A stretch of DNA of 64,000 nucleotides from a phage. Below, piece by piece: positions 269 to 64,000 of the stretch; the stretch's first letter is position 1, and the number at the start of each line of letters is the position of its first letter. Under the pieces are notes generated by a model. The model was not told the origin of the DNA and searched no databases. It was given only the letters and a program-made list of their open reading frames with translations. Location: the sequence record PZ540767.1, one strand, 5' to 3'. The position numbers were made by a program, and so were the translations under genes.

Positions 269-811
269 ATGTCACAGTACACTGAACAAGATCGTGAATT
301 ATTGGAAGCTCAAGCTAACCAACTGGGTGTAGATTTCCACCCTAATATCAGCTCTGAAAAACTGGCTGCACGTATTGCAGAAGTTATGGAAGGGCAAGAA
401 CCCCAAGAAAAAGAACGCCCTGTTAAAGGGGAAACCAAAGAACAACGTCGTCAGCGTAAGCATAAAGAAGCTATGGCTCTGGTTCGTTGTCTCATCGTCT
501 GTAATGACCCAAATAAACGTGAGTGGCCTGGTGAATGGTTAGGTGTATCCAATGGTGCTGGCGTCCAAGTTCGTAAATTGGTTCCGTATAACCAACCTGA
601 TAAACCATTCCACTTACCACGTATCATGGTAAACATGCTTCGTGAAAAACAGGTTCAGATCTTTGCTTCTAAACCTGGTAAATATGGCACTACTATTCGA
701 GTGCCTAAATCTATTCCAGCCTATACCATTACTGAGCTGCCTCCACTGACCCAAGCAGAGCTGGATGAATTGGCGCTTAGTCAGCTGCAACGTGGTGCTC
801 TGGACGACTAA
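269..811 (+). CDS. Hypothetical late protein (180 aa)
   Basis: ORF with ATG and upstream aggtaaga RBS; in late + strand operon. Confidence 0.6.
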   Translation: MSQYTEQDRELLEAQANQLGVDFHPNISSEKLAARIAEVMEGQEPQEKERPVKGETKEQRRQRKHKEAMALVRCLIVCNDPNKREWPGEWLGVSNGAGVQVRKLVPYNQPDKPFHLPRIMVNMLREKQVQIFASKPGKYGTTIRVPKSIPAYTITELPPLTQAELDELALSQLQRGALDD

Positions 812-15300: not shown

Positions 15301-17050
15301 CAATCCTCATCATGACTTACGTGCGGTTGAGTCGGGGAGTGCAGATGAAGCAGCACTGGTGAACATGGGATACCAAAAAGTATCCCCACTGTCCCAGGAC
15401 TCTTTGTCAAAACACTCTGGACGTGTACTGTATGTGACCAAAGAGAATGGGTATCAACGAACCGTCTCTGGTACTTTCAGTTTAACTGGAAGCCAGCGTA
15501 AAGGTTCTTCCCTAAGTGGGGATCGTGCTGTTGCTGATCGTGTTCGAGCTGACGAGTTAGAACAGTTAAGGCAAGCGTCCTATGCAGACGTGCGAGGGCG
15601 TGAAGCACTGTCCCACACTGCCTTTGATCCTACTCAGATCCAGGATAACCATGTAGTGCCTGTATTAAGCACTGATGGTCATATCATGGACTTCCGTTAC
15701 ATGGCTACCCACAATACTCGTGACACGTTCCTTGATCGTAATAATGACTTTGCTGACCTTGTTGGTCGTCTGGCTGGTCAGAATATCGATAAGGGTGATG
15801 CCCCAAGCCAGAATGCTAAGATCCTGGAAGCTCTGCATGAAGACTCTAAGGCTAATATCCTGAAGAATCCTAATGCTTACTTTGAGATTGGGCCTAATGC
15901 ACCTACTGAGCGAGGACGTGAGATCTGGGCAATGATGCCTTATGAAGCACGTACTAAAGCTACTTCTCTGTGGGGTGCTGATCGTATGTATATTCGAAAC
16001 GATCTGGTTAACCTTACTTTTGGCTTCCGTAAGTATTCACTGGCTAACATTTTTGATGTTGATCCAGAACAGCGTAATATTGCTCAGGGTGTTGCTGCTG
16101 GTTTACTTGAAGCTGCTTTTGGTGATAAGGCTAAAGCTTATGTAATTAAGGGTGAGCGTGGCATTCAGGAATTTATGCAGTCCTATAAGGACGTGATCGT
16201 TATTCGTAACCTGAAAACCCAGTTCAGTAATATTATGTCTAATACTGCTCTACTGGCTGCTTATGGCGTTAACCCGGTACGTATGGTTAAAGATATCCGT
16301 ACTGCTCTGGTTGCTGGGATTGACTACCGTAAACAGTACTCGCTGCTACTCAAGTATCAGCAACAGCAACGTGCTGGTATTGGTAACTTTGCTCAGATGG
16401 AGTCCCTGATCAATGAGACGCAGGATCGCTTGAATGCTAACCCTCTGGCTAAGTTTATTCAGGCAGGTATGATGCCTACCATCGTAGAAGACGTTCAGCC
16501 TGATGCTGATGGTTACACTTATGGTTCTAAGATCCGTAAGAAATTTAATGAGGTATCTGCCCATCTGCCAGCTTCTGCTGTAACAGCTGCTCGCTGGGCT
16601 GTGATTGATAAAGGTACTGCACCTCATAAATTCTTAAGTGATGCTGCTCAGTTCAGTGACTTTGCTGCTAAGTATGCTCTGTATAAGCACCTGACAGAAC
16701 ATGCCCGAGATCGCCTGAGTCATACTGAGGCTTTACAACGTGCATCTGATGCTTTTGTTAACTATGACATTCCAGCTACAGCTACTCGCCAATATCTGGA
16801 TGATATGGGGATTACCATGTTTACGAAGTATCGTGTTCGTATCCAACGTGCAATGTTCTACTTGATGGATAAACGTCCAGCATCTGTTATGGCACATATG
16901 GCAATTACAGGGCAGTTTACTCATGCACCTGATGCTATGGAGCCACTGTTTGCACGTAACTTAGGTAACCCATTCACACCTTCAGTATTGCAGGGTGGGA
17001 GTTTGTTGAATGTCCCAATGCCTTGGAACTTATTCAGAATGGCATACTAA
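6368..17050 (+). CDS. Giant virion-associated RNA polymerase (vRNAP-like, 3560 aa)
   Basis: Single uninterrupted 10.7-kb ORF; size class matches N4 vRNAP (~3500 aa); sits at the end of the structural operon; followed by a strong terminator. Confidence 0.8.
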   Translation: MRLQSGYSTILRNTQMAGNSSPLDKFLVPQQVTGQEAAQALPAPTQPTIAQRVNDASTRILNNLTGQGMYPTEEGEIARLKRINNEQSAYAKEVAAKDSDYGWSSTNFLDPETSSLTDRTASTFVNYGKALTDAVNGLAGKTDKTFKTLGNVLDQASIPNDALDAYRRVQAGKGTEADNALLDRQGAWWTQPIEVNQYGVPEMGNQTLRQRLDAINERQKTQNQSSYDNLEKLANPVQMQQAAADIEKSIEGKSGLDKFAAGLAAIARNPGAAGQTMVESAPYMVGGIPGMLASSAMQGGSVLSQYLDTQRKASDGQIPTAKDVAIGTGLGVVDGALNFAESIINRTAMLPGSKVLPAGVADRLVNAAQRIAPRSSTAAAALARVTAPTLDLAKNALTEGLVSGAQNQIEENYAKGKNEWDTKGNDVAFFQGIAAATGFGAPRAALSTAGEVANTAAQAMQKRTEAQDPVGQAARNTTPEDLMNPQSEGYNPAAAIRRAGMEWTRNTDATTDEQKAEIQSQAQSAMDAAQNDHQNNLDMINQRATAERTLADAGKFIPAIQERLDQLSNDPNADPDAVNQLQTILAQQTEARDAAQQQLDAMPSQEELAQSATRSAEVLDQAKSEFGKFSSATGMNTNTAKPENPTASDIISHPMSYTNEDLQEFVRNAPANATPAELGTLRALADAKVAENAVKTGSKVNSEIFKSTSNNLSLGDYQQGINTAVQAGDTNRIQSLMTGINNFETSHTAKADIAQQYLNEAKQNGKSYQILKTSNGWELNTGKRLDAKAQAKNGGFTIHKGSTGLVNNIVNEAKAITATRQYMEGIATPSTNQNVTGSTEQVASPEAQPEGAATVAGETGAQEQQAQPTISPLTTRDIRAMDQATLEKVMATTQQAMSSDTNPVLARNLDALDREWTRRADVATNQNRGVDAPHRKLDDSFKPKAQENEIQRSQAETTTQTEHTQADIDNESTGSESQQTAPVNVDDVVTNTDTLTETQQDNVAHGALSIFGKVGESLKALREKALAEPKGLQNLVLTGFNQRVRPGFGSPLVAVKDFINTLKTAVDTGSFTEVNRFLKQHISESKAEGAKQKALLKQFVEFHDHITANLDNIIRTKAPEYRYQDFAQFILDENGNFDSNTKTGIAAGIFSWLGENGDKMFLNQSEVAKTLRIKEDQLTPQAMSRMADIGYRQDLIMSQLGQRIYQAMGFAKRADVDPNRASKLQNALGAYALHAMYSNGYMEQSLMTAKEYFDLQTMGLDEQSAKEAAQAFQNDFGVSPNDAKHKIVFSRPARNFDAEGKPVAIEAISDIKNGMKDTRSLMSKLFGYDPAVREVLTTKPAGFKQKVFGKMNREVPSVLAARISKAMQYDYTIDQGVVNAMRTMSTVDNAALQHIFGVRTDADVPNEMEIFKKGREAKNADIQRSMEMGLDFANRRGTNPFWMPMEVWTNQRIGDLASEFNPQGSKVHRAMGGLSAHQVEISVARNAPVLDADGKPTQYGLFLVSLAQGMEEAPVIGADGKKLKSVDKQTYATFLPAFQNYLRKPENIKAVRAMQKVIAGSATTADTNVIKNAVAEYGMNGQSFAALHNLAQYATALESGKSSVKLLAQMESDGVTNGPILTNILNGSADFDLLKRGGIYREGDNITNMPTYRELGGQDYYELLGDAMRQHWADYKTNAPASQQGQIQALEYFSTGYGARSKAKTLATPFNYSAGIPALKAAMGRATVEDVYSKIGSLIPLAKSNNKADFAKAYAEVSKNLSVLLGQKVNLPRTADGLVKFSLNPAQTKRIIDVDSQTRGVATETAVNEVAADFIASRDANTSLVNTTFTLANLRYNAAKAALLKKRIAEGKIPVDAKGAPLEGLTQADLDKLSRMIPNMPSATGVLSENTKASGYPMAKVEKAFTAKSPATSIDIYFKEAANPKPAMDANGMLLSQGLVGGYKSTQSTVTETKLTNPGVAMGANVTQGTDAAISSDVISKIESQNVHDANILSPDNVLKGARIQNKAMFDAVVSYHPQHLAASALLTEVRSLAGANLSTNDKVAAKKALEAMKTKILGKDFKGNMKAALNTILNQAYDRDIKKLETLSEVYAVNQYGTEGGEYLITDTDRKKIGDEIARLKRSRAAGLQRISAMFSKGNAPKAEANQYPDKMRQYLYEASASTGSVSASEVMARTKGKFANPVYNELHNLISGLIPADAVVNVLDGQTMPKNVKGQSLPQNRDAIAWSYQDKNTAQVNLSLSKEASPEVLLHELTHIALGRAIATADSNPKVKAVLARTEKLMGRVTKLVSADPQLTQKFAPALANVDEFISWGMTNPEFQRYLDTITGVPEISGRNRGWLGTAFKQFVDQMSGIFAAVTGRAINARVTTALEALTFDTAHLVQAINPTAIESPVSSISHPMSNTNSAADQVAKFSHVDIFDNLASTGGKTNSAQFTGNLRNVISTVADQLYGALGSRVTQNANENYTPGQVWNEAVATGKAPVSTEALSNGFVLTNQEAFAVEAIEAAVSESLASGFTSPVNREIRRTWQAAKQSLKPEDFHNGNWNQATQAEKRAAQQKWNYLFDVTNDSGESQHLSRFVAMAIGHEDTSNLLGFQMEDGKDSGNTAFEQATAYFNQAVNTVSGMLTNTHQGQAANARAQALAEKLIQIELKNRDTTMNILTGGIDKVENALDTAAAKSKQFLGKIVKATGIDQSSNNALNAMGKVAGLAARDQLGSLKETIKEFRDFNAPSTPEGSLASILTEATNADDVRALHESLLRSTKRIEQDRATLAAVTAKNLNEMFDNNGQDLTKEDRTAMTYSLLRTDLQSVLHIEGMNLNNLHKLVSNTGYRKQQINNLEKTISQYANGNDKIIRAKALGFWMATGRNTLGRDLVLNAKAIATGAATHYSTVGIEPTLDEVNAIDALASMYALSYTKTENRVRTAAVMERELARGKDNGIKMLMATYANLIEDSANTLFAGNQLSRIKGYLPEDTNPHHDLRAVESGSADEAALVNMGYQKVSPLSQDSLSKHSGRVLYVTKENGYQRTVSGTFSLTGSQRKGSSLSGDRAVADRVRADELEQLRQASYADVRGREALSHTAFDPTQIQDNHVVPVLSTDGHIMDFRYMATHNTRDTFLDRNNDFADLVGRLAGQNIDKGDAPSQNAKILEALHEDSKANILKNPNAYFEIGPNAPTERGREIWAMMPYEARTKATSLWGADRMYIRNDLVNLTFGFRKYSLANIFDVDPEQRNIAQGVAAGLLEAAFGDKAKAYVIKGERGIQEFMQSYKDVIVIRNLKTQFSNIMSNTALLAAYGVNPVRMVKDIRTALVAGIDYRKQYSLLLKYQQQQRAGIGNFAQMESLINETQDRLNANPLAKFIQAGMMPTIVEDVQPDADGYTYGSKIRKKFNEVSAHLPASAVTAARWAVIDKGTAPHKFLSDAAQFSDFAAKYALYKHLTEHARDRLSHTEALQRASDAFVNYDIPATATRQYLDDMGITMFTKYRVRIQRAMFYLMDKRPASVMAHMAITGQFTHAPDAMEPLFARNLGNPFTPSVLQGGSLLNVPMPWNLFRMAY

Positions 17051-17054
17051 TAAA

Positions 17055-17082
17055 AAGCCCCTCAATGAGGGGCTTCTTTTTG
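17055..17082. terminator. Bidirectional intrinsic terminator at convergence of + and - operons
   Basis: aagcccctc-aat-gaggggctt 9-bp stem, T-tract on + side (ctttttgg) and A/T-rich on - side. Confidence 0.6.
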
Positions 17083-17086
17083 GCTC

Positions 17087-17260
17087 TTATGAGTCACGCT
17101 TTTCCTGGATGACTGCTCCAATGAGGCAAGCAATAAAAATTACAGCCACAAAGAACCAGAAGAAGCTAAGTAACCAGAAAGCTACCTTCATTAAAGCCAG
17201 TACAGCAATGGCTGCAATCACACAGAACAGGCCAATAAAGCCATTAATAACGTGTCTCAT
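17087..17260 (-). CDS. Small hydrophobic membrane protein (57 aa), not in ORF track
   Basis: Hand-translated: MRHVINGFIGLFCVIAAIAVLALMKVAFWLLSFFWFFVAVIFIACLIGAVIQEKRDS*; ATG 17260 with aggtga RBS; two predicted TM segments. Confidence 0.4.
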   Translation of the reverse strand: MRHVINGFIGLFCVIAAIAVLALMKVAFWLLSFFWFFVAVIFIACLIGAVIQEKRDS

Positions 17261-17270
17261 AGATCACCTG

Positions 17271-17975
17271 TTAGTCGAAGTTAGCAAATGGGTCGTCTTC
17301 AGTATCTGCTGGTTTAGCAAAGCCAGCCTCACTGGTTTCAACTACTTTGGTTACCGGAGTATCTGCCTGAGCAAACAGCTCGTCACCTTCAGATGAAGCC
17401 AGCCCAGCGTCTGCGAATGGATCGACTTCTTCTGCTACAGCAGCATCTTTGGCTTCTGGCAGCAGTTCATTTTCAGCACGCAGGTTTGCACCTTCGTCAA
17501 TGTCGAATGGGGCAGCATTGTCTGCATCACTGGTTTCAGCAAAGAGATCTTCTTCACTTTCAGTTTGAGTTTCTGCTTCAGCTTTTACTTCAGCCTGTGC
17601 TGCGGCTTCTTCGGCAGCTTTATCAGCTTCGATTTCAGCTTTAGTACGACGTTTACGACGCTTAGGCTTATCGTCACCAGGTTCGTTACTGGTTTCCTCA
17701 GCTGAATCTTCTTCAGCCTCTTCCTCTTCCACTACTGGAGGCTCTGCGAAGAGTTGTTTAGCAACTTCAGACACAGAACCAGAACTAAGAGGGCCAGTTA
17801 AATCAGCAACAGATTTCAGGCGGAAGTTATCTTCGCCTACAGCTACAGCTGCCACGATCTGACCATCCAGAATACCTACTGTAACATCAGCCCCTTTAGC
17901 TGTAGGTACGAGACTGGAAAACGCATGTTTGGTCACCAGTTCGATCAGATCTTCAGTAGAAAGCAAAATACGCAT
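17271..17975 (-). CDS. Highly acidic protein with repeated D-P-F motifs (234 aa)
   Basis: ATG with aagga RBS; Glu/Asp-rich, KPKRRKRR basic patch; internal 'EEVDPFADAG' and C-terminal 'EDDPFANFD'. Confidence 0.6.
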   Translation of the reverse strand: MRILLSTEDLIELVTKHAFSSLVPTAKGADVTVGILDGQIVAAVAVGEDNFRLKSVADLTGPLSSGSVSEVAKQLFAEPPVVEEEEAEEDSAEETSNEPGDDKPKRRKRRTKAEIEADKAAEEAAAQAEVKAEAETQTESEEDLFAETSDADNAAPFDIDEGANLRAENELLPEAKDAAVAEEVDPFADAGLASSEGDELFAQADTPVTKVVETSEAGFAKPADTEDDPFANFD

Positions 17976-17977
17976 AG

Positions 17978-18541
17978 TTAATCCTTAGTAGCTAACATGG
18001 TTAGCATTTTGAAAGTTTCAGTTTTAATTCCAGCATGTACGGCTGCTACAGCGTCTGCCATGTGCTCTGCTTTACTGGCAATGATCTGGCCATTAAGTTT
18101 GGGCCAGTTAGCATCAGGATATAAACCAGATGCCCAATCAATACCTTGCTGCTTTGTTGCAGAGGATTTACCAGTGATTTCCATTCTGGTTTCAGTAGCA
18201 TTTACACAGATCACAGGTTTAGCACCATGACTGTTTCGTATGGCTGCTATTAACCCAATACAGGCACCTGCACCCAGTGAAGCTCTGGCATTCTGACTGC
18301 CATGAGGAACTTCAATACAGATGGCATCTATGTAAGGCATATAGCTCATTACCTTCTCAAACAGGTATTCAGCTCTGGCTAAGTCCTGAGAAGATTTCCG
18401 TACTTGCTTGGAATTATCTTTGGGTGGTTGGATAACATCCAGCTTGGCAACACTAAGAGATCTGGCTTCAGTGTCATATAACATTGCAGCCAGTCCCCAG
18501 TTACTAAAGCTTGGATCCATCCCCAGCAGTTTGAGTTTCAT
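17978..18541 (-). CDS. RuvC-like Holliday junction resolvase
   Basis: N-terminal 'LGMDPSFSNWG' resembles RuvC-family G(I/L)DPG motif; ~187 aa. Confidence 0.5.
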   Translation of the reverse strand: MKLKLLGMDPSFSNWGLAAMLYDTEARSLSVAKLDVIQPPKDNSKQVRKSSQDLARAEYLFEKVMSYMPYIDAICIEVPHGSQNARASLGAGACIGLIAAIRNSHGAKPVICVNATETRMEITGKSSATKQQGIDWASGLYPDANWPKLNGQIIASKAEHMADAVAAVHAGIKTETFKMLTMLATKD

Positions 18542-18827
18542 TAGGATCCTCTTCCATGGTGAAGGGCAGTTTTAAGAACTGGTTCAGAGCATACTCTACA
18601 CCCAGTTTAAATAAAGCACGTTCACGAGGATCAGTAATCAACTCAGGTTGATCAGCACCATCGAATTGGACGTTAAGATCGATATCGTCCGGGGCTTGAA
18701 TTACAGCCAACAGGTGATGGCCAATGTTACGATGCCAATCTGCTACCAGGAAACCTAACTGAAGGTGGTTCTCTACTGGCAGAATGTTTTCAGGTTGATC
18801 CTGTACTACGGTTGAATCTTGGGTCAT
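18504..18827 (-). CDS. Hypothetical protein (107 aa)
   Basis: ORF with ATG preceded by gaggt RBS; overlaps resolvase start by 38 nt. Confidence 0.45.
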   Translation of the reverse strand: MTQDSTVVQDQPENILPVENHLQLGFLVADWHRNIGHHLLAVIQAPDDIDLNVQFDGADQPELITDPRERALFKLGVEYALNQFLKLPFTMEEDPNETQTAGDGSKL

Positions 18828-18869
18828 GGTAACCTCAGAATAAGCCCCCTGGTTTAGGGGGCTAAGTTA

Positions 18870-19610
18870 TTACATGGTAAATGGATCATCACCAGTGGTG
18901 GCATTGTCAGATCCTGGGTTGAAACCAGCACCTGCAAAGTTACCACCCGGAGCACCAGCGTTACCCTGACCAGTCACTTCTTTGAAGCGATCCCATACCT
19001 GGCCTTTGTTAGCTTCGAGCCACTTATCTTTGAAAGTAGCGACTTCCTGCTTACCACGAATTTCCTGTTCAGTCTTATCGTCTTTACTACGGAAGACTTT
19101 TGCAATGGCATTGATCTCACGAGCTTCATTGATCGGCTCATACTGACCATCATCGTTGCGTTTCTGCTTGTTCTCTTTAATACGCTGGATAGCGAAGGTG
19201 ATCGGTTTACCACACAGATCCACCAGCATAGGAACATCAGTCGGAACTTCGGCTTTCTTCTCGAAGTTATACAGGTTGATGGTTTTGGTTTCTGGTTCCA
19301 GTTTAACCAGAGGCTTACCGCAGGCCAGCAGGCAGATCGAGTTTGCTTTCAGGAAGTTCTTGGTGTACTCGCCTTTATCGTTGACGACTTTACCCTGACC
19401 GTTCATGAACCAGATCTGCTCTTTGTAGATGCCGTGATCATCTTCGAATTCGATGTTCATGGCTTGAGCTTTGGACTTTTCCGACTTGGTGATGTAAGCC
19501 AGTTTGATGATGCCCGGATAGACGTCAGTGTCACGAATGCGCATACCAGTGCCCAGGGTATCTTTCTCTACTGCTTTTTCTGCATCATAGTTAAAATCAA
19601 AATAAGACAT
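18870..19610 (-). CDS. ssb: Single-stranded DNA-binding protein (phage SSB-like)
   Basis: 246 aa with Gly-rich linker (GNAGAPGGNFAGAGFNPG) and acidic tail 'GDDPFTM', reminiscent of SSB C-terminal tails; position in replication/recombination module. Confidence 0.5.
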   Translation of the reverse strand: MSYFDFNYDAEKAVEKDTLGTGMRIRDTDVYPGIIKLAYITKSEKSKAQAMNIEFEDDHGIYKEQIWFMNGQGKVVNDKGEYTKNFLKANSICLLACGKPLVKLEPETKTINLYNFEKKAEVPTDVPMLVDLCGKPITFAIQRIKENKQKRNDDGQYEPINEAREINAIAKVFRSKDDKTEQEIRGKQEVATFKDKWLEANKGQVWDRFKEVTGQGNAGAPGGNFAGAGFNPGSDNATTGDDPFTM

Positions 19611-19611
19611 G

Positions 19612-20142
19612 TTAGTTACCTTTTGTTTCTAGGCCATGGTTCTCATGGAAGCCTAATTCAATTAATTTCTCAGCCCGGCAGATAGCTGCTTCATTGGCTG
19701 TTTTGAAGGTACGTTGCCATACCTTCTTACGGTTCATCGTGATTTCTGCTACATAGCGATCACGACGTTTGCAGTACCAAATACCTTGGTGTCCAGTAAT
19801 GGTATTGCTGATTGCACCCCTGTTTCGCATATTCTGAAGCATCGTAGTGTCCTTCAGATTTACTGCCCTGTTGTCATCACGAATATGGTTATCGTGGTCT
19901 ACGTGCCCTTTAGGCCACTGCCTGTTGTGCATGTAGTAACAGATGATATGCTCTCCATAGGTAGTGCCGAAGATTGTTATATGGCGGTAGCCGCTAGCCT
20001 TGTGGAGACTCCCAGCGCGACTACCGATAACAATTCTCTTATTACAAGACTTGCTAATCCAAGTAAGATGTCCAGTAAGAGCATCATATTTTAGTACCTT
20101 TTCAAGCATTTCAAGGGTGAGATCTTTTTTGGGAATTTTCAT
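19612..20142 (-). CDS. HNH homing endonuclease with AP2-like DNA-binding domain
   Basis: 'HVDHDNHIRDDNRAVNL' HNH motif; C-terminal 'GIWYCKRRDRYVAEITMNRKKVWQRTFKTANEAAICRAEKL' AP2-like; free-standing between ssb and ATPase. Confidence 0.7.
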   Translation of the reverse strand: MKIPKKDLTLEMLEKVLKYDALTGHLTWISKSCNKRIVIGSRAGSLHKASGYRHITIFGTTYGEHIICYYMHNRQWPKGHVDHDNHIRDDNRAVNLKDTTMLQNMRNRGAISNTITGHQGIWYCKRRDRYVAEITMNRKKVWQRTFKTANEAAICRAEKLIELGFHENHGLETKGN

Positions 20143-20870
20143 GCGTAATACTCATGCAAACGGTCTAAGACCAACTGCATGTCATTATCGATGAAGGTTT
20201 CCTTGATATCAAATAAGTCCTCTGGGCCACGTAAACGCTCGTTAATGGTGTTCTTAGTAACCTGGGTCTGGTAAACATGCTTGTACCCGAGCATCTCCTC
20301 GCGCTCGTTAATGTGAAGTAACCCGTTCTGGTATTCTTCCAGATCCGTAAGCTTCACTTTCTTACAGGCAATAACCAGACTGAAGTATGACTCAATGCCC
20401 TGGTTCTTCAGTGCCCCTTTAACAGGTACACAGGTTTCACGAACCATGTCATCGTTAACTTCATCCTTCGTGTGAGCTAAGAAGATCACGTTCTTGGTAG
20501 ACGTGGCTACCAGCACCTGCATCAGGTGTTTGAACTGCTGGGCAAATTGGCCCCATGCAGCTTGGGTATTCGAGCTAGTAAGTACGAGCTGGCTCTCTAC
20601 CATGTCCATGTAGTACGTCAGTGAATCAACTACAATGGTGTGAATATTCGGCTGGGTTTCAGCCCACTGAAACGCTTTAGGGAGGATATCCCAACGTGCA
20701 ATGGTACGTTCCAGGAAACCTGATTTGAACGGCAGCTTTTTACCTGATTCACAGTTAAGGTACAGCACACCTTCCGGGTTCTTCAGGTTCTTCAGTGACC
20801 GTGATTTACCACTTGCTGATTTACCTACAAGCAGTACAAGGTTGTCATTAACGCTGATTTGATCGGACAT
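20139..20870 (-). CDS. RecA-fold P-loop ATPase (Sak4/AAA_24-like recombination ATPase)
   Basis: Walker A 'GKSASGKS', Walker B-like 'IVVDSL'; start set to internal ATG 20870 (MSDQ...). Confidence 0.5.
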   Translation of the reverse strand: MSDQISVNDNLVLLVGKSASGKSRSLKNLKNPEGVLYLNCESGKKLPFKSGFLERTIARWDILPKAFQWAETQPNIHTIVVDSLTYYMDMVESQLVLTSSNTQAAWGQFAQQFKHLMQVLVATSTKNVIFLAHTKDEVNDDMVRETCVPVKGALKNQGIESYFSLVIACKKVKLTDLEEYQNGLLHINEREEMLGYKHVYQTQVTKNTINERLRGPEDLFDIKETFIDNDMQLVLDRLHEYYA

Positions 20871-20939
20871 AATTACCTCTTTTGAAATGCCCCCGAAGGG
20901 GCAAACCCACAAAGGGAACGGAAGTTCCCCAACACACAA

Positions 20940-23099
20940 TTACTTAACTTTCTTGGCAATGGTGAGCATGATGCTGCCATCAATTTCACTCTCGTCCAGC
21001 TTACCGGGAAGCTTGTTGTTCAGTTCCTTCACCTGGCTTCTGATACGATCCAGAGAGAACCCTGCATCTACCAGTACCATGGCATAGTTGAACAGCTGCT
21101 TATTACGGTTACCATCACCAGTGTTGTTAAGTACCCAACGTTCCAGATTATCCAGTTGATGCTGATCAGTAAGCATTTGCTTACGATCCTCGTTCTTACT
21201 GGTTTTAGGAATGAAGGGGAGCACATCGAATAGCTGACCATCCGTATACTCATAATGCCCTTTATGTGTTAACCATTTCTTAGAACGGTGTGAACACTGG
21301 TCATCAGCTTTAAATGGCAAGCCTTCAAGGACGTTGTTATAAAACTCCTTGTAGTCTTTGGCATCCAGCTTCAGCTCATAGTTAATAGGCAAAATGATAC
21401 GGAAACGGTTAGTCTCTTCGGTATGTCGTTTAGTGGTGTAATACAAAGCCCTGTAGTCTTTCAGCAGTAACTTAGCTGTAGACAACTGACAGGTTCCATC
21501 CACATCAATAACCAGAAGGTTAAAGCCAGGAATGGCATTCTCTTCATTACGATAACCGTTCATCACTTTATGGGTCAGCCAGTGAAGATCAGGCTGATTT
21601 ACCAGTCTGTGCAGTTGATCGAATGGTACGTCTTTAGGTACGAAACCAGTGGTTAAATCCTTGCTGTATGACAAGATCATCTCATCAAGGTTAGTTGGTT
21701 TCAGAGATTCACCACTCAGGAATAAGATGCCATCAGTGTAGCTTCGCTTCACAATGATGTTGTTTTTATAACCATAAGCAATAGCCAGGTTAATCATCTC
21801 ATCCTTCTGGTTTTTACCACCACGGAAATAAGGCAGATCCTCATCCATGTCAGCCAAAGTAACGTCTGTGCCTACATCAGCTAAATACTTAGCCAACTTG
21901 GCATAGTTACGTTCAGGCGTAAGCAGCTTGGCAAAAGCTTCACCACATTCTTCAGTAAGCTTAATGGCGTTCTCCAGATGATCCTGAGAAAGCACAGGTG
22001 AACCATCTACGAAAGCATAAGCAGCAGCCAACTTCATGCACTTAAAGTAACGGTTCTCAAGTTCACCCTTTTGGATAGTTTGATACTCGTTTAAGTGTTT
22101 GGATTTGGCTTCGCAGTCCAGACGGTACTGCAAGATGTTACGTAGTACTTCGCGTGGGATAGTGATAGCTTTACGAAGGTTAGAGATATCTGCCAGCTTC
22201 TCCAGCTTCTTACCTAGATCGGTAATGAAGGTATCAGCATTGGCATCAAACATCTGCTTCATAATGTCATCAGCTGTAATCCCTTCTGGTTTCTTAGCTT
22301 TCAGCAGGAAACCAAAGTGACAACGACGTGCATAGCCCATCTCCAGCATGTCATACAGACGACGTTCAGTTACATCCCCATCAAACAGCTTGGTTGGAGT
22401 ACCAAACAACAACATGTTAGTTGGAGTACTACCTACCAGCTTCTCATGGCGAACGTTTTCAGCAGACGATTTGATCAGCTTATCTTTTACTAAACCGAGG
22501 TCATAGAGTTCCAGGAAAGTATCCAGTACCTCAGTCTGACCTACCAGGTTTGCACCGATTTCATCAATCTGCAAGTTAACAGCACCTGCATTACCCATAA
22601 GCAGTTTATGACGCATCTGCTTAACTGCTGGGGTAGTACCAGAGTCAAAGCTAAACAGAAGACTGCCTAAGCTTTCAAACTCTTTACGCACCTTCTCCAG
22701 CTCATCTTCTGGGTCAACCAGATTAGACGCTGTGGATTTACGTTGAGCACGTTTCTGAGCAAGCTCAAACATGTTCTGTTCAGCTACTGTAGGGAAAGTT
22801 ACTTCCAGGAATCGTTCACGGAATCCTGCAAGCAATTCACGTTCGATCAGGCTGGTGGAATAGCCTTTACCAGTACCTGACGGAGACAGGTTCAGAGCGT
22901 AGATATTGATAGGCAGATCGTTACGATCATATCCTTTAATGACTGCTCGCATAGACGAGGCCATTACACCCCAGTAGTAAGCCAGAACTACCCTGAAAAA
23001 GAGTCGTTCTTCGTTAAGGGTTTTAGCATTGAGAAAATCAACGATCTTCTCACTGGTGGGATGATATTTCATCTCACTCACTGGTTTGATGGAGATCAT
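20940..23099 (-). CDS. Large replication protein, putative primase (719 aa)
   Basis: 'LLVIDVDGTC' DxD-type motif and glycine-rich 'SPSGTGKGYS'; position in replication module. Confidence 0.4.
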   Translation of the reverse strand: MISIKPVSEMKYHPTSEKIVDFLNAKTLNEERLFFRVVLAYYWGVMASSMRAVIKGYDRNDLPINIYALNLSPSGTGKGYSTSLIERELLAGFRERFLEVTFPTVAEQNMFELAQKRAQRKSTASNLVDPEDELEKVRKEFESLGSLLFSFDSGTTPAVKQMRHKLLMGNAGAVNLQIDEIGANLVGQTEVLDTFLELYDLGLVKDKLIKSSAENVRHEKLVGSTPTNMLLFGTPTKLFDGDVTERRLYDMLEMGYARRCHFGFLLKAKKPEGITADDIMKQMFDANADTFITDLGKKLEKLADISNLRKAITIPREVLRNILQYRLDCEAKSKHLNEYQTIQKGELENRYFKCMKLAAAYAFVDGSPVLSQDHLENAIKLTEECGEAFAKLLTPERNYAKLAKYLADVGTDVTLADMDEDLPYFRGGKNQKDEMINLAIAYGYKNNIIVKRSYTDGILFLSGESLKPTNLDEMILSYSKDLTTGFVPKDVPFDQLHRLVNQPDLHWLTHKVMNGYRNEENAIPGFNLLVIDVDGTCQLSTAKLLLKDYRALYYTTKRHTEETNRFRIILPINYELKLDAKDYKEFYNNVLEGLPFKADDQCSHRSKKWLTHKGHYEYTDGQLFDVLPFIPKTSKNEDRKQMLTDQHQLDNLERWVLNNTGDGNRNKQLFNYAMVLVDAGFSLDRIRSQVKELNNKLPGKLDESEIDGSIMLTIAKKVK

Positions 23100-55649: not shown

Positions 55650-56924
55650 TTAGCTTAATGCATAGTTGGAACCACGGATTTTATCTCCGAGGTTGTTAGA
55701 CAGTTTGGTATATACCCCATCAGTGCTTCCATACAGCTGGTTCATCAGGGATTGCAGAATGGTGCTATCAGCGAATTCTGCCAGCATCTCTTTGTACCAG
55801 TACCGTACTTCATTACAGTTGTTTGGATGGGAACCAAAGGCATCGTGAACAGTAGCCACAGGGAATGGTTTGTAGGTCAGCATGAAGTTAACTTTACGCA
55901 TTACATCACGAGCTAAGTCGATAGGTAACTGCATGTAGTTGCTCCAGTTGATATCGTTGAGAATAACCATAGAAGACTGCTTATTCTCATTCCACAGACG
56001 GATACGACGTACCATATCACCAGTAGCTTCTTCAGCCTGCATACCCATGCTATTAGCCAGCAGACGTGCTTCCAGCATCTTCTGCACCTCTGCTACCAGT
56101 TCTGGATCGTAGTTGCACAGACGCTCCAGCTCACGCAGCAGATAGGCATCACAGCAGTGAATGGTATTGGCTACGTTAGCTCGGCCTTTCTCTGTACCCC
56201 GGTTCTCTTTGTATTCCATGGTGAAAGTAGCGTGATCAAGCTCATCTACTTCAATTCTGGTTTCCAGAGTTTCCATGACTTTCATCTTAGCGATGAAGCC
56301 ATCAGGCAGCTCCAGAACGTGTTCCAGAGCATACGGACGCCAGGAACCCAGGAGTTCATCCATGAGGTTGAACGCACCAGGAGCGATGATGTGGGCTGCT
56401 TCGTAGAAGTAGTCCAGCATCTCGCCCTCACCGAATACCTTCTTAGGCACAGCCTTAGAACCGTAACCAGAGGTCATTACAGCTTGTTTGATATGGCTAC
56501 GAGGTACTTGGATACTATCCAGACCTTTACGCTTCAGAACGCCATTCATGGCGTCTGTAGTGTTGCTGTAGGCATCCATACGCTTCTCTGGGTCAATACA
56601 ACCAGTGTTGTATGCACCTCTCTCACAGCCTGTGAGGGCACTCATAATCTGAATTCCAGAGCAGCAACCATCCCAGTAGGTGATGTTGCCTACAGCTTCC
56701 CCACGCTGTACACGACGTAAAGTCATAACAGCTTTGTGGTACAGCTCAGGGGTTTCAGCATCTTGAACCTTAGATTCCAGATCCTTGATGTTGTCGTATA
56801 CCCACTGAATACGTTCTTCGAACAGTTTCTTGTCCAGACCGTAATAGTTGGCTACGTCGATGCACATGTATTCCCAACCAGACATATATTTGAAGTTTGG
56901 GCCATAAGCGGTGTTGATTACCAT
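55650..56924 (-). CDS. Phage RNA polymerase II, large (catalytic) subunit; T7-like single-subunit RNAP C-terminal half
   Basis: 'DGCCSGIQIMSALTG' (T7 RNAP motif A-like DGSCSGIQ) and 'VHDAFGSHP' (motif C-like HDSFG). Confidence 0.85.
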   Translation of the reverse strand: MVINTAYGPNFKYMSGWEYMCIDVANYYGLDKKLFEERIQWVYDNIKDLESKVQDAETPELYHKAVMTLRRVQRGEAVGNITYWDGCCSGIQIMSALTGCERGAYNTGCIDPEKRMDAYSNTTDAMNGVLKRKGLDSIQVPRSHIKQAVMTSGYGSKAVPKKVFGEGEMLDYFYEAAHIIAPGAFNLMDELLGSWRPYALEHVLELPDGFIAKMKVMETLETRIEVDELDHATFTMEYKENRGTEKGRANVANTIHCCDAYLLRELERLCNYDPELVAEVQKMLEARLLANSMGMQAEEATGDMVRRIRLWNENKQSSMVILNDINWSNYMQLPIDLARDVMRKVNFMLTYKPFPVATVHDAFGSHPNNCNEVRYWYKEMLAEFADSTILQSLMNQLYGSTDGVYTKLSNNLGDKIRGSNYALS

Positions 56925-56941
56925 TAGTTAAGTCTCTCTAT

Positions 56942-57949
56942 TTAAAGTTTAAATTCATCAGGCACACCAGTTACTTGCTCTTTATTGGCAAAGTTTAAAC
57001 TGGCTTTCTTGAAGGGAGTGCCTTGAAGGTTGATGTGATAACCCTGGGTATACAGACGTCCACGTTTGTCAGGTTTATTGCCAAAGTAGAACTTATTACC
57101 CTGGTTTACCATCAGGCTATAGAAGTAGTACGACTGACGTTTGTAACGCATCCAGTTGTCTTTCTGTTTACGTACCAGATCAGCCTTCTCCCACGGTGTG
57201 AGAGGTTTCTTACGGTGTTTCTGGAGCTTCTCTTCATCGATCTCATTGAGATCAAATGTAGGTTCTTCTTCGTAGTTACAGAGGAATTCTACGTCCAGAG
57301 AGTAAGGCACAGCATTACGGCTGTTGATTACATCCAGACAGATATCCTCATTATGGTGATTGAATGATCCCCCTAGAATAAGGCTATCAGATGAATAAGT
57401 AAGGTAAGGAGTATCCATGTTATGGGTAAGCTTCTTGGGTGGGCAAACCAGTGGTGGTAGATAACACGAACGCTCAATGAATTGAGCCAACTGGTCAGGC
57501 AACCCAATATTGCTAACGATATACAGAGATGCTTTAGGATGAGGCTTGTTAATGTCATATACATCAGTATCCGTAAGGACAGCAACGATTTCAGCCATAG
57601 TCTGAATGCTGTCACGTTTATCATCGAAACCCAGTCTGGAAGCCAGCTGGCCTACTACGTTGACCATTGGAGTAGGTTCAGGGAAATACATAATTCCCAC
57701 GAACACTTCTTTCACAATAGCTTCCAGATCAAGGGATTTGAGGTGGTTAAGGCGTACAGCTTTAGAGTCGTAATACTCACCCTCAAGCCACTGGTTTAAC
57801 AGAGATACACCCTGTTCTACCTTGTCTAACAGGTTGCAATCAGGGTCTTCAAACAGCTCTTTACGGATATAACCATCAATATGTTTCCTGTTGAACTGAC
57901 GTTCATTGATGGCCTGAAGTTCCTCAACTGGTAACCATTTATGCTGCAT
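56942..57949 (-). CDS. Phage RNA polymerase II, small subunit (N-terminal half of split T7-like RNAP)
   Basis: Immediately upstream of catalytic subunit in same orientation; 335 aa; N4 gp15/gp16-like split arrangement. Confidence 0.65.
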   Translation of the reverse strand: MQHKWLPVEELQAINERQFNRKHIDGYIRKELFEDPDCNLLDKVEQGVSLLNQWLEGEYYDSKAVRLNHLKSLDLEAIVKEVFVGIMYFPEPTPMVNVVGQLASRLGFDDKRDSIQTMAEIVAVLTDTDVYDINKPHPKASLYIVSNIGLPDQLAQFIERSCYLPPLVCPPKKLTHNMDTPYLTYSSDSLILGGSFNHHNEDICLDVINSRNAVPYSLDVEFLCNYEEEPTFDLNEIDEEKLQKHRKKPLTPWEKADLVRKQKDNWMRYKRQSYYFYSLMVNQGNKFYFGNKPDKRGRLYTQGYHINLQGTPFKKASLNFANKEQVTGVPDEFKL

Positions 57950-58640: not shown

Positions 58641-58931
58641 TTACAGTTCGAAGTTTTCGAGTGCCTTGGCATCACCGAAGGTGACTGACAGACGCTCTCC
58701 CAGAGCCTCTACGCCGTGCTCACGAATGAAGGCCAGTACTGCACCTTCAACCGGGTGATCTTCACGCAGAGCGATGCCACGGCCACCCTGACCCAGGCGA
58801 CGAACCTGACCGTCACGGCCTTTGACGCCGATGTTCAGATAGCCACCAATGTTACGCTCAACAGGAGCAGCAGCATTGTTAGCAGAGGAATTGGAAGTGT
58901 TGTTTGCAGCAGTGTTTTTCTGATAAGCCAT
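58641..58931 (-). CDS. Early protein (96 aa), first gene after a hairpin promoter; possible RNAP II cofactor by position only
   Basis: ATG 58931 (MAYQKN...) after gaggt RBS; Asn/Ala-rich N-terminus, Gly/Arg-rich core. Confidence 0.45.
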   Translation of the reverse strand: MAYQKNTAANNTSNSSANNAAAPVERNIGGYLNIGVKGRDGQVRRLGQGGRGIALREDHPVEGAVLAFIREHGVEALGERLSVTFGDAKALENFEL

Positions 58932-58992
58932 GATAAATACCTCGATAGTTAATATGAAATGAAGAACGAACAGGCAGGATTGCCTTTGCATT

Positions 58993-59939: not shown

Positions 59940-60278
59940 TTATACCTTGGGTAAGTTTTGGATGCTTCCAGCATTACTTGACCAACGCCCACTAACTACG
60001 CCATGGAGCCTCTCTTTAGGTACATACTTCTTAAATTCCCACATACCATTTTTATTAAGGAATACATCAAATCCCATAAACATTTCATCAGCATGACCAC
60101 GATTGGTAGAAGTATGTTTTTGGTTTTTACGTTTAATACGAGAACCATCAATACAGTACCCATCAAGGGTACAGCCAATGGCTAAAGCCATCTTTACTTT
60201 CTTGAGCCATGCATCAGTAACACGGATATGAATACACTTTTGCATAGCAGGTGCATAGACATAGATTATTTTACTCAT
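59940..60278 (-). CDS. Hypothetical early protein (112 aa)
   Basis: ATG; downstream of hairpin promoter instance 2. Confidence 0.45.
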   Translation of the reverse strand: MSKIIYVYAPAMQKCIHIRVTDAWLKKVKMALAIGCTLDGYCIDGSRIKRKNQKHTSTNRGHADEMFMGFDVFLNKNGMWEFKKYVPKERLHGVVSGRWSSNAGSIQNLPKV

Positions 60279-60344: not shown

Positions 60345-60566
60345 TCATTTATTGTCCTGTGGACAATATACCTCCCAATCTGTCCATTTTTGAGCTAGGA
60401 AGCCTTCTACAGTATCTGTGATAGTATGGCCATCAAGAAATCTTACAAGTATTATACTATCCTGGGACAATGTTATATAAGAACCACTATCCCATACTGA
60501 TCTTTTTATCTTAGCCCCTAGTTTCAGCATTAATAATGCTTCTTTAGCAGTCATATAATGTACCAT
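60345..60566 (-). CDS. DUF2829/Tad2-like small protein, copy 1
   Basis: N-terminus 'MTAKEALLMLKLGAKIKRSVW'. Confidence 0.5.
   Translation of the reverse strand: MVHYMTAKEALLMLKLGAKIKRSVWDSGSYITLSQDSIILVRFLDGHTITDTVEGFLAQKWTDWEVYCPQDNK
60350..60368 (-). promoter_or_regulatory. Hairpin promoter candidate, instance 2
   Basis: + strand ataTTCATTtattgtcc-TGT-ggacaata; overlaps 3' end of the preceding small ORF; ~75 nt upstream of ATG 60278. Confidence 0.5.
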
Positions 60567-60742
60567 TCATGTGATTCATCGAAGAATGAACAGAATTCAG
60601 ATACTTTAATAAGCCCAGGTGGGATAGTGTTATCACAACATACATTATCCCCTTTGATATAATAAAAGAGTTCTGGTTTCATCCAGTCAGCTCTGATCTT
60701 ACATCCGATCTTCATTGCTAACAGGGCTTCCTGAGTCGTCAT
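60551..60742 (-). CDS. DUF2829/Tad2-like small protein, copy 2
   Basis: Start at internal ATG 60742: 'MTTQEALLAMKIGCKIRADW'. Confidence 0.5.
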   Translation of the reverse strand: MTTQEALLAMKIGCKIRADWMKPELFYYIKGDNVCCDNTIPPGLIKVSEFCSFFDESHEWYII

Positions 60743-60938
60743 ATAATTTCCACTCCATATCTGCATATTCTTCAGTAAACTTATTAACAGCACAGGCTAG
60801 ACTGACAAAGTTTAATGGTTTATGTACATAGCAAATACAGTTGCCTTGTAAATCATAATAGTTAGTATAATCAGTCCAGGTAGCAGGAATAACCTTGCAA
60901 CCTATTTTCATTGCAAGCAATGCTTCAGCTGTTGTCAT
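60699..60938 (-). CDS. DUF2829/Tad2-like small protein, copy 3
   Basis: 'MTTAEALLAMKIGCKVIPATW'. Confidence 0.5.
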   Translation of the reverse strand: MTTAEALLAMKIGCKVIPATWTDYTNYYDLQGNCICYVHKPLNFVSLACAVNKFTEEYADMEWKLYDDSGSPVSNEDRM

Positions 60939-61128
60939 TGAATAACTCCCAATTATCTACGTCACCATAACAAGGTATATAGTCTTCAAGTACCAAATGG
61001 GGAGTACCATCTTCATTAACTGTTATATCATCTATAGGATCATATTGTACCCAATCACCTGGTGCCCATGTTTCCCTTCGTACTTTGCATCCTAGTTTAA
61101 GAGCTAGTACTGCTTCTTTGGTTTTCAT
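60925..61128 (-). CDS. DUF2829/Tad2-like small protein, copy 4
   Basis: Start at internal ATG 61128: 'MKTKEAVLALKLGCKVRRETW'. Confidence 0.5.
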   Translation of the reverse strand: MKTKEAVLALKLGCKVRRETWAPGDWVQYDPIDDITVNEDGTPHLVLEDYIPCYGDVDNWELFNDNS

Positions 61129-61174
61129 CCCCTGTCTCCAGTAGACCGATTCACAAGAGTGTTCGGAGAACACG

Positions 61175-61204
61175 TTAATAAACTAAGCCCTCCAGTGAGG
61201 GCTT
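61175..61204 (-). terminator. Hairpin, terminator-like, upstream of the paralogue array
   Basis: aagccctc-cagt-gagggctt 8-bp stem; U/A-rich downstream on - strand. Confidence 0.4.
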
Positions 61205-61670: not shown

Positions 61671-61922
61671 TCAATTGTAGTTTTCGTACATGTCGTAGCA
61701 CACTTTGAAGTGTTTACGAGCTTTACGTATTTGCTTACGAGTAGGCTTAGTTACAAACGTATAATAACGTTCGTAGGGCAGACCATAGTTATGATTAGTT
61801 ACCGATTGTTGACTGAATACCAGTTGCCAGAAACTTGGCACTGATTCAATGATGCCATTACCAATACTAAACTTGTATGCGGATACAAATACAACATCGG
61901 TATAGATTGTAGTAGTGCTCAT
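61671..61922 (-). CDS. Early protein, paralogue A of 'TKPTxKQ(I/V)R' pair (83 aa)
   Basis: 'YTFVTKPTRKQIRKARKH'. Confidence 0.45.
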   Translation of the reverse strand: MSTTTIYTDVVFVSAYKFSIGNGIIESVPSFWQLVFSQQSVTNHNYGLPYERYYTFVTKPTRKQIRKARKHFKVCYDMYENYN

Positions 61923-62192: not shown

Positions 62193-62477
62193 TTAGAACC
62201 AATGTGGGTAATCAGCCATGAACTGGGCTAATTCACGCTCATGCTCACTGATAGCTGTACGCTTACAACGACGTACTTGCTTAGCTGTAGGCTTGGCTGT
62301 AAATGCATACTGGTGCATTGATGAGGACATGGGATTGTTATCCACTACCAATTCAACAGCTACACACCATTGAGCAGGTTGAACCATATCATCAGGGAAA
62401 CCGCTACGTTTAGTGATTTCGTTAACTGCACAAGGGTCAGCAGGTAAGAACATTACGGAGGTTTTAATAACACGCAT
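62193..62477 (-). CDS. Early protein, paralogue B of 'TKPTxKQ(I/V)R' pair (94 aa)
   Basis: 'YAFTAKPTAKQVRRCKRT'. Confidence 0.45.
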   Translation of the reverse strand: MRVIKTSVMFLPADPCAVNEITKRSGFPDDMVQPAQWCVAVELVVDNNPMSSSMHQYAFTAKPTAKQVRRCKRTAISEHERELAQFMADYPHWF

Positions 62478-62930: not shown

Positions 62931-63152
62931 TCAAAACGGAATCTCATCACTGAATCCTGACAGATTCACTGGATAAAACTCATGCCAGTAATAAGACTGA
63001 TCATGAGCCTCAATGGACTCTGCACGGATTTCCTTATACATACCACTGTTACGAACTTCTTGCAGGGCAGCTTCCGCTTCCTCAAGAGTTCCAAAGGTAT
63101 CTACAAAGGTATCTGCATAGAGATCCCCAGGTACAACAGTAAGTAAGAACAT
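62931..63152 (-). CDS. Acidic early protein with SSB-tail-like C-terminus (73 aa)
   Basis: ATG after ggaga RBS; ends '...NLSGFSDEIPF'; first gene after hairpin promoter instance 4. Confidence 0.5.
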   Translation of the reverse strand: MFLLTVVPGDLYADTFVDTFGTLEEAEAALQEVRNSGMYKEIRAESIEAHDQSYYWHEFYPVNLSGFSDEIPF

Positions 63153-63203
63153 AATATGTTCTCCAAATCAATGATAGGACACCATGTCCTATCTCTTCTA
63201 TTC

Positions 63204-63220: not shown

Positions 63221-63769
63221 ACCACTGATGCTTAAGTGCAAGAGAACTACGTAGTAGTTCTCCTTGCATACTTCCACTGAAGGTATAGGTACACTTTGTG
63301 TGTAAGATATAGGTTGGTTTAGGTATGAGGTAGGTGGATGATAGGATATAGGGTGAGTATAGAAACATTACCAAAGTAGTAATTTGACACTCAATTCCCA
63401 TCATTTCCTATATAAGTTAACTGGTCACGGTACTGAGTGATTAGGTTATCGGAGTACACCGTTAGGGTGTACGGAGATAACTGGTGATTCTACATAGAAT
63501 AGATCTATAGCTATGTGATGACTGAGGGTGGGTTAGTGAGGGATTGTGTTAAGGGATTGAGTGAGATAGTAACACTGTGTCAAGTGGTTTGTCTTATATC
63601 ATTTTGTTATAAGCATATTCAGAATTGATATATAGATTAATCTGGACTGGTTTATCAGTAACTTACTGTATACAGGAAGTAGTACAGAGTTAGACTGACA
63701 TACGCCAGAGAGTAAGTTTGCCACAAGTTTTGAAACGGAGTAGCGCACCTGTACTGTCATGTAGCACAG

Positions 63770-63801
63770 TGTGTATTGTGTATGATGTGTATTGTGTATG
63801 A
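63770..63801. repeat. Perfect 16-bp tandem duplication (tgtgtattgtgtatga x2)
   Basis: Read directly: 63770-63785 identical to 63786-63801, in non-coding C-poor region. Confidence 0.8.
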
Positions 63802-63840
63802 GTCGAAGACACCGCAACACCGAAGCGAAGCGAGTGTGTA

Positions 63841-63871
63841 AGGTAATTAAATAGCTCACCCGAAGGTGAGC
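63841..63871 (-). terminator. C(UUCG)G tetraloop terminator after the partial gene at window end
   Basis: On - strand: gctcacc-uucg-ggtgagc followed by UAUUUAAUU. Confidence 0.5.
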
Positions 63872-63878
63872 ATATTTA

Positions 63879-64000
63879 TTACTTATCATCATCATCCAGT
63901 GATACACCAAGTGCAGCCAGCTGATTCTCCAGCTGCTTCTTGGTGCTGATGTATTCAGCTTTATCCTTCAGCTCTACCATCTCACTGAAGCGCTTGGCTT
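63879..64000 (-). CDS. 3' end of a minus-strand gene entering from beyond the window
   Basis: Hand-translated open frame ...AKRFSEMVELKDKAEYISTKKQLENQLAALGVSLDDDDK*, stop at 63879-63881. Confidence 0.45.
   Translation of the reverse strand, partial: AKRFSEMVELKDKAEYISTKKQLENQLAALGVSLDDDDK

Follow-up and report, generated by a model that had tools for sequence, protein, structure and literature searches.

The 64,000-nucleotide stretch of phage DNA analysed here (sequence record PZ540767.1, referred to as the window) contains an array of four small overlapping genes, c1 to c4, which are true, anciently diverged paralogues and belong to the Tad2-like superfamily PF11195, both at the family and at the fold level. 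The four copies have lost the canonical pocket for glycocyclic ADP-ribose (gcADPR) and the beta2-beta3 insertion, and they are not canonical Tad2 proteins. Judged by their alignment, they fall into a short-form branch of PF11195 that is widespread but uncharacterised. We rank first, with a probability of roughly 40%, the reading that the array encodes small-molecule sponges with a rebuilt pocket. The best match of the window was Klebsiella phage P19-618 (92.9% identity; FBKp27 and others ~85%), and by sequence comparison the window is assigned to a Klebsiella N4-like podophage of the genus Efbeekayvirus (Schitoviridae).

Paralogy, family membership and predicted fold

Four consecutive, overlapping minus-strand open reading frames (ORFs) at 61128..60345 had been described in an earlier note on this DNA, together with a shared N-terminal motif that includes a Trp. 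Coordinates and lengths were reproduced exactly (Table 1), and the motif is real, with similarities among the copies that are far past chance. Neighbouring genes overlap by 14 nt (c1/c2), 44 nt (c2/c3) and 4 nt (c3/c4). All four proteins start with M-(K/T)-(T/A)-x-E-A-(L/V)-L-x-(L/M)-K-(L/I)-G-(C/A)-K-(V/I), and in their alignment M1, E5, A6, L8, K11, G13, K15, W21 and W60 are invariant; every copy has a Trp at about position 21 and a second Trp close to the C-terminus. The overall identity among the copies is 27-32%. Pairwise BLASTP gave E-values of 1e-5 to 4e-11, the latter for c2 against c3, and c3 matched c1 across residues 1-60 (E 5e-9). A hidden Markov model (HMM) built from c1 orthologues alone retrieved c3, c4 and c2 with E-values of 2e-11, 2e-8 and 2e-8, respectively, and an HMM from which c4-type sequences were left out aligned residues 1-63 of c4 (E 7e-11). 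Six-frame segments of the 64-kb window yielded no family match beyond c1-c4.

Within the first 16 codons, comparison between the paralogues showed saturation at synonymous sites (proportion of synonymous differences, pS, 0.63-1.15) and few nonsynonymous differences (pN 0.12-0.32); the N-terminal motif is therefore kept by selection at the protein level and does not reflect recent DNA duplication. Ten Efbeekayvirus genomes were compared: this window, P19-618, FBKp27, Tribble, K17alpha62, GADU21, HS106, P184, pKP-BM327-1.1 and pKP-BM327-1.2. Against the orthologues in the nine related phages, the ratio of nonsynonymous to synonymous substitution rates (dN/dS) was 0.05-0.63 overall (c2 0.12-0.52, c3 0.05-0.30, c4 0.06-0.56), indicating purifying selection on all four copies.

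These values bear on the possibility that the ORFs are not genes at all, but chance ORFs or decaying duplication remnants in a non-coding leader. The FBKp27 record, which leaves the orthologues of c3 and c4 unannotated and lays predicted 'promoters' over them, and the frameshift in c1 of GADU21 would fit such a view. With dN/dS well under 1 in all four copies, a conserved protein motif over saturated synonymous sites, confident fold predictions and hundreds of homologues in phage contigs of ~76 kb, it is the least probable of the readings considered.

The assignment of the array to DUF2829/Tad2 in the earlier note was confirmed for family and fold, with differences between the copies. Pfam PF11195 ('Tad2-like', formerly DUF2829) has a gathering threshold of 25 bits; c1 passes it with 27.8 bits, but c4 (22.2 bits) and c3 (14.3 bits) fall below, and no PF11195 match was found in c2 in the Pfam scan. 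The matches of the array copies cover just the N-terminal part of the profile, from position 1 to 32-50 of 73. For a more sensitive comparison, a family alignment of 119 sequences was used, comprising the four copies and 115 homologues, all 115 from phage contigs of ~76 kb. When this was compared by hhalign with a set of 99 Tad2 homologues centred on SPO1 gp34.65 (the canonical set), a probability of 95.6% and an E-value of 1.3e-8 over 39 columns were obtained. An exhaustive search of 1.8 billion representatives with the family profile retrieved 131 proteins at E <= 1e-3, and 110 of the 125 scanned remote relatives outside the phage clade carry PF11195.

The AlphaFold2 model of c1 (pLDDT 94.9, pTM 0.81) has the element order a1, b1, b2, b3, b4, a2, b5. 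Its top 23 Foldseek matches in the PDB are Tad2 structures (SPO1, ModTad2, HgmTad2/AcrIIA7 and SptTad2; TM 0.57-0.66), followed by noise. The model of c2 (pLDDT 89.3) has the same topology with a disordered tail at residues 66-79, and its top 16 matches are all Tad2, despite the absence of a Pfam match. The Tad2 fold (8SME, 9EIB, 8KBI) consists of an N-terminal helix and an antiparallel sheet of five strands, the last of which is preceded by a short helix; all of these elements are present in the models. Thus c1 has a significant profile match, and c1 and c2 share a fold; from the models, c1-c4 are predicted to adopt a minimal, ~60-residue version of the Tad2 fold. In searches of PDB chains, the c1 sequence gave no Tad2 match and a profile of the four copies reached Tad2 at E ~1.2 only, over the N-terminal 24-34 residues; because plain sequence searches gave such weak results or none, profile-profile and fold comparison were needed to establish the link. 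NCBIfam has no model for the Tad2-like family, and even SPO1 Tad2 has no match there.

The short-form branch comprises proteins of ~60-70 aa with the consensus MxxxEAxxALxxGKKVRxxxW....YiY....DWEIYeE, to which the array copies align cleanly. They have the length and the conserved positions of the branch and lack the same pocket motifs: both WNG and W..S.TD are lacking in 121 of the 126 short-form representatives. Two differences were seen. The Klebsiella-phage clade has the signature G-C-K, the wider branch G-K-K. Furthermore, domains elsewhere in the branch are often fused, with two short-form domains in one chain in 41 of the 126 representatives, whereas here they are encoded by separate overlapping genes, up to seven in a row. 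In three proteins (P0149, P0158 and P0163) a short-form domain is fused to a canonical Tad2 domain. No functional study of the short-form branch was found in the literature.

Loss of the canonical pocket and possible functions

In SPO1 Tad2 the ligand is contacted by W25, N26, W73 and D79, with contributions from T78, S76, H71, D67, I63 and T65; the equivalent pocket residues of HgmTad2 are W21/N22/G23 and W87/S90/T92/D93. W25, N26, S76, T78, D79 and W85 are present in 99 of the 99 sequences of the canonical set, and W73 in 98. From these, the array copies keep W25 and W85 only. In the profile alignment, W21 of the array (W20 in c3) aligns to W25 of SPO1, and W60 aligns to W85 in the final 'DWxIV' strand, not to W73. 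The counterpart of N26 is a gap in this alignment and is absent in all four copies, and none of the four has a counterpart of W73-x-x-S76-x-T78-D79. The position following the conserved Trp is occupied by A, T, M or D across c1-c4. It also varies freely among orthologues (A/N in c1, D/N/G in c4), and since it flips in this way it is not under the constraint seen in true Tad2 proteins.

The beta2-beta3 insertion, which forms the pocket at the A-C interface, has 24 residues in SPO1 Tad2 and 35-41 in HgmTad2 and SptTad2; in HgmTad2 and ModTad2 it builds a second pocket, for cyclic dinucleotides or cyclic UMP. In the c1 model it is reduced to a 4-residue turn between b2 (27-30) and b3 (35-37), and the global profile alignment of c1 with SPO1 Tad2 needs 19 gap columns. 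The array proteins are 20-26 residues shorter than SPO1 Tad2 (89 aa). Canonical Tad2 proteins (SPO1 gp34.65, Myroides ModTad2, HgmTad2/AcrIIA7, SptTad2) have 80-105 aa, compared with 63-69 aa here (c2 has 79 with its disordered tail); they are encoded by a single gene, in contrast to the 3-7 diverged tandem copies found in this genus. They also have N26 and W73-x-x-S-x-T-D, which bind gcADPR or histidine-ADP-ribose (His-ADPR), and the insertion, all of which the array copies lack.

It is therefore very improbable that the proteins are ordinary Tad2, i.e. sponges of type I Thoeris that work on 3' cyclic ADP-ribose (3'cADPR) as SPO1 Tad2 does. The passing score of c1 and the matching fold speak for it, but ligand-contacting residues found in 98-99 of the 99 canonical sequences (N26, W73, S76, T78 and D79) are missing from all four copies, which are also shorter and lack the insertion. 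Judged by these residues, a ligand is unlikely to be bound as SPO1 Tad2 binds 3'cADPR. Both this reading and that of non-genes are largely excluded. A reading as an 'anti-Thoeris sponge array' could for the same reasons not be upheld as worded: the gcADPR pocket is missing, the match consists of the N-terminal helix and the core fold, and a tested short-form homologue is inactive (see below). The differing ligand specificities proposed in the earlier note are a hypothesis. No canonical Tad2 and no extra copies were found elsewhere in the window, or in the closest relative's 12.8 kb beyond its limits.

Data on related proteins come from Hadary et al. 2025. Among the 18 Tad2 homologues that they tested, no. 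79 departs from the canonical pocket (WSK, PWKETMIE) but keeps the insertion and the equivalent of W73. It inhibits Thoeris of types I and IV, so that a diverged pocket does not by itself exclude sponge activity. Their no. 80 (73 aa) inhibited none of 7 Thoeris, CBASS or Pycsar systems. It scored 22 bits on the short-form HMM versus 16 on the canonical HMM, and it is the sole short-form-like protein tested in the literature. From the work of Hadary et al. and Li et al., the Tad2 family has evolved at least five ligand classes and two pockets. N4-like phages are documented reservoirs of anti-signalling genes, Tad2 included, with a hotspot between the vRNAP (virion RNA polymerase) and primase-polymerase genes in which homologues of Tad2, Tad3, Acb4 and Sequestin are reported (Fedorova et al. 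2026, bioRxiv 10.64898/2026.06.04.730250).

In the sponge reading, the four ORFs, probably co-transcribed early genes, would be expressed in the first minutes of infection from a vRNAP hairpin promoter; this timing depends on reading the hairpin in front of the array as a vRNAP early promoter (see below). The proteins would form small oligomers, as Tad2 does, through the conserved N-terminal helix a1, and would neutralise host factors by binding them in stoichiometric amounts, the likeliest targets being small immune-signalling molecules. The conserved Trp21 would form the pocket together with the central region, which is specific to each paralogue, and the copies would supply different or redundant specificities. 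Tad2 is a homotetramer (a dimer of dimers) with its pockets at protomer interfaces and with helix a1 as the tetramerisation element. This helix is the best-conserved part of the array family, which is compatible with a tetramer, but no proof of it.

We place this reading first because the PF11195 members of known function are all signal sponges, the Trp that stacks on the ligand in Tad2 (W25 of SPO1, W21 of the array) is invariant, some proteins join a short-form domain to a canonical Tad2 domain, and anti-signalling genes abound in N4-like phages. Several observations weigh against it: the missing counterparts of N26 and of the W73 motif, the freely varying residue after the Trp, the reduction of the insertion in the c1 model, and the inactivity of no. 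80. In addition, the conservation of W21 and W60 could reflect structural needs alone, and the published hotspot, although found in the same phage family and likewise a cluster of small, rapidly exchanged genes, is a different locus, at ~17.0-20.9 kb in the window compared with 60.3-61.1 kb for the array.

Alternatively, the minimal Tad2 fold could serve as a protein-binding scaffold, each paralogue inhibiting or redirecting a host protein instead of sequestering a small molecule. The target could be part of a defence system (an effector or a sensor) or a protein attacked during takeover of the host, e.g. a polymerase, a nuclease or a protease. We regard this as a serious but still doubtful possibility, which comes close behind the sponge reading because the pocket is gone and the tested short-form protein is inactive. 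It is also consistent with the variable part being a contiguous, surface-forming stretch (~18-58) between conserved ends, with the abundance of small host-takeover proteins in N4-like early regions and with the dispensability of single paralogues (c2 in HS106, c3 in pKP-BM327-1.1). However, no PF11195 member is known to act on a protein, and an earlier claim of Cas9 inhibition by AcrIIA7 (HgmTad2) was not reproduced. The invariant Trp matches the ligand-stacking residue of Tad2, and the occurrence of short-form and canonical Tad2 domains in one chain suggests that they serve one pathway.

A different use of the four genes would be an obligate hetero-oligomer of all four products, such as a heterotetramer built like the dimer of dimers of Tad2, in which mixed interfaces create binding sites that are absent from the single copies. 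Overlapping, probably translationally coupled genes favour co-expression in a fixed ratio, the conserved helix a1 is the tetramerisation element of Tad2, and the two diverged domains per chain in the 41 short-form representatives are a 'Rosetta-stone' hint of unlike pairing. However, the sets of copies vary (3 to 7, some close relatives lacking the c2, c3, A or B type) and the alleles shuffle independently. Both patterns fit poorly with an obligate complex of constant make-up, and we consider such a heteromer improbable. Equally speculative is a broader version of the sponge reading, in which the short-form domain would be a modular, fast-evolving cassette subunit that forms homo- and hetero-oligomers, from separate paralogues here and from fused domain pairs elsewhere, with new pockets at mixed interfaces. 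The array would then be a combinatorial sponge library for immune signals outside the range of the known sponges, possibly also those of undiscovered defence systems.

Tad2 is one of few phage sponge families and has already served as a tool that revealed immune signals, e.g. His-ADPR. The locus reveals a large minimal Tad2 branch without the known pockets, which has expanded to a copy-number-variable early array in one lineage of therapeutic-candidate Klebsiella phages. If the proteins bind signals, the ligand range of sponges would be wider than thought and the proteins could be bait for undiscovered signalling molecules; if they bind proteins, the Tad2 fold would for the first time be seen in a different role. 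The array copies may also account for part of the variation in host range among phages that are nearly identical in other respects.

Copy-number variation and the early cassette

The number of array copies in the ten Efbeekayvirus genomes varies from 3 to 7. Three copies are present in pKP-BM327-1.1, four each in this window and in P19-618, and five each in FBKp27, Tribble and K17alpha62. GADU21 has six, one of which (c1) is frameshifted. HS106 and P184 have five each and pKP-BM327-1.2 has six, in these three phages with a possible diverged first gene (MKTYTLEEARLM...) in addition. This 71-aa 'MKTYTLEEARLM...' ORF, the first array gene in the three relatives, failed the E 1e-3 cut-off and may be a very diverged array member.

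The gene order is fixed as [g] [A] [B] c1 c2 c3 c4. Types are individually dispensable, c2 being missing in HS106, c3 in pKP-BM327-1.1 and B in P184; c4 is present in 10 of the 10 genomes. The alleles are mosaic: compared with P184, c3 of the window is 100% identical but c1 only 45%. Variation is concentrated at residues ~18-58, and both ends are conserved. The locus gains, loses and shuffles copies, and this turnover of copy number and alleles suggests an evolutionary arms race.

Contig L012 (Logan ERR12726561), which is syntenic and N4-like but more distant, carries a separate set of 3-5 overlapping copies at the position of the array. Two scans of viral contigs, each with a single protein, gave no match to arrays in other phage groups, and in tblastn searches of GenBank phages P0130 found one Efbeekayvirus record and P0137 none. 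At 452-658 (-), 3.3 kb from its short-form array, contig L012 also carries a 68-aa gene of the Sequestin family (PF21825), a known family of gcADPR sponges; no Sequestin homologue was found in the window.

The array belongs to the early region, as it lies upstream of, and co-oriented with, the genes for the N4-type RNA polymerase II (RNAPII), within a run of small ORFs of the same orientation. In every Efbeekayvirus genome compared, the order is a terminator hairpin, the hairpin GTGTTC-TCC-GAACAC, a conserved leader with a Shine-Dalgarno sequence and the first array gene. The terminator hairpin is found at the same position in 10 of the 10 genomes with small changes at most. GTGTTC-TCC-GAACAC has a single exact match within the window; it is identical in nine of the ten genomes, GADU21 having one stem mismatch, and in all cases the first array gene follows 31-33 nt downstream, regardless of the paralogue type.

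Expected of an N4-like early gene are a position in the early region and, in front of it, a vRNAP hairpin promoter with a 5-7 bp stem and a 3-nt loop with a central G on the template strand. Here, the loop on the template strand is 5'-GGA-3', with C at -9; the N4 vRNAP promoter hairpin has -10G/-11G/-12A in the loop plus -9C (PMC4496689). Because of this agreement we read GTGTTC-TCC-GAACAC as a probable vRNAP early promoter. The placement of the array among the early genes in the earlier note thus stands, with the array upstream of the RNAPII genes and behind a conserved terminator and a GGA-loop hairpin.

Table 1. Positions of the array genes, the hairpins in front of them and the polymerase genes in the window
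Feature	Position	Strand	Remarks
c1, 67-aa short-form Tad2-like protein	60925..61128	(-)	First array gene
c2, 79-aa short-form Tad2-like protein	60699..60938	(-)	Model, Foldseek, BLASTP match to c3
c3, 63-aa short-form Tad2-like protein	60551..60742	(-)	PF11195 below threshold; PHROG 3474, E 4e-5
c4, 69-aa short-form Tad2-like protein	60345..60554	(-)	Last array gene; ATGA overlap with c3
Candidate N4-type vRNAP early promoter hairpin, GTGTTC-TCC-GAACAC	61159..61173	(-)	6-bp stem, 3-nt loop
Terminator-like hairpin, AAGCCCTC-ACTG-GAGGGCTT, with T-rich tail	61185..61204	(-)	Terminator scan; closes upstream early transcription unit
vRNAP, 3,560 aa	6368..17050		
Two N4-type RNAPII subunit genes	55650..57949	(-)	Large subunit matches Pfam RNA_pol; both so annotated in relatives

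The overlaps between the genes leave a trace in the proteins. The last 14 residues of c2 (YDDSGSPVSNEDRM) are a reading, in another frame, of the conserved N-terminus of c3 in the overlap at 60699-60742. More generally, the array-protein tails YDDSGSPVSNEDRM, ENQGSNTSPKDRV and NEHKGSISPDGTRAEGT are out-of-frame translations of the conserved N-terminus of the following copy. Such a tail appears in relatives in which the following gene starts with MTTQEA and not with MTTAEA, because GCTGAA of MTTAEA supplies a TGA stop; the fourth codon pair of the following gene thus sets the tail length. The same pattern is present in contig L012 at 4179-4231.

Annotation of the array and other loci of the window

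In GenBank, orthologues of the array genes are called 'hypothetical protein', are unannotated or are mis-named. In FBKp27 (MW394388, 3448-3896), the orthologues of c3 and c4 are unannotated and have four 'promoter' features over them. In GADU21 (ON004963, 2490-2890), c1 is split by the frameshift, and a neighbouring array gene is labelled 'ATP-dependent DNA helicase'. No description of the array was found in the literature on Tad2, DUF2829, Schitoviridae or Efbeekayvirus.

The position equivalent to the published hotspot (17050-20940, minus strand) holds ORFs of 57, 234, 187, 107 and 246 aa, an HNH endonuclease and an AAA_24 (RecA-like) protein. No sponge domain was seen there, and a Pfam scan of the 234-, 187- and 246-aa ORFs gave no match; the uncharacterised ORFs at this position are candidates for anti-defence genes.

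Directly downstream of the array, a 112-aa ORF (59940-60278, minus strand) contains 'KKVKMALAIGCTLDG', which resembles the helix motif of the array proteins. With an E-value of 2.2 over 11 residues it is not a member of the family, and it has no Pfam or PHROG match. A 116-aa ORF (58641-58991, minus strand) matches PHROG 6271, labelled 'toxin' (E 2.2e-9). The labels of its orthologues conflict, 'toxin' in Tribble versus 'ssDNA binding RNA polymerase cofactor' in GADU21; it is possibly the equivalent of N4 gp2.

The early region also holds a second pair of paralogues, ORFs of 83 aa (61671-61922) and 94 aa (62193-62477) on the minus strand. Both match Pfam DUF7279 (PF23945; E 5e-13 and 3.6e-12, respectively) and PHROGs 12748/2375, and they have the motif 'TKPTxKQxRxxxK' in common. 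Further upstream, two perfect hairpins with a 9-bp stem and a 3-nt loop, GAGAACTAC-TAC-GTAGTTCTC and GATAGGACA-TGG-TGTCCTATC, are located at 63242-63262 and 63173-63193 on the minus strand, in front of a 73-aa ORF (63152..62931); these are candidate promoters or terminators. Finally, a long imperfect palindrome, GTTATCTCCGTACACC-ctaac-GGTGTACTCCGATAAC, lies at 63445-63481 (minus strand) within an ORF-poor stretch (~63400-63880). It carries two CTCCG cores, a core common to the array hairpin, and could be a further early promoter, or an origin or end-related element.

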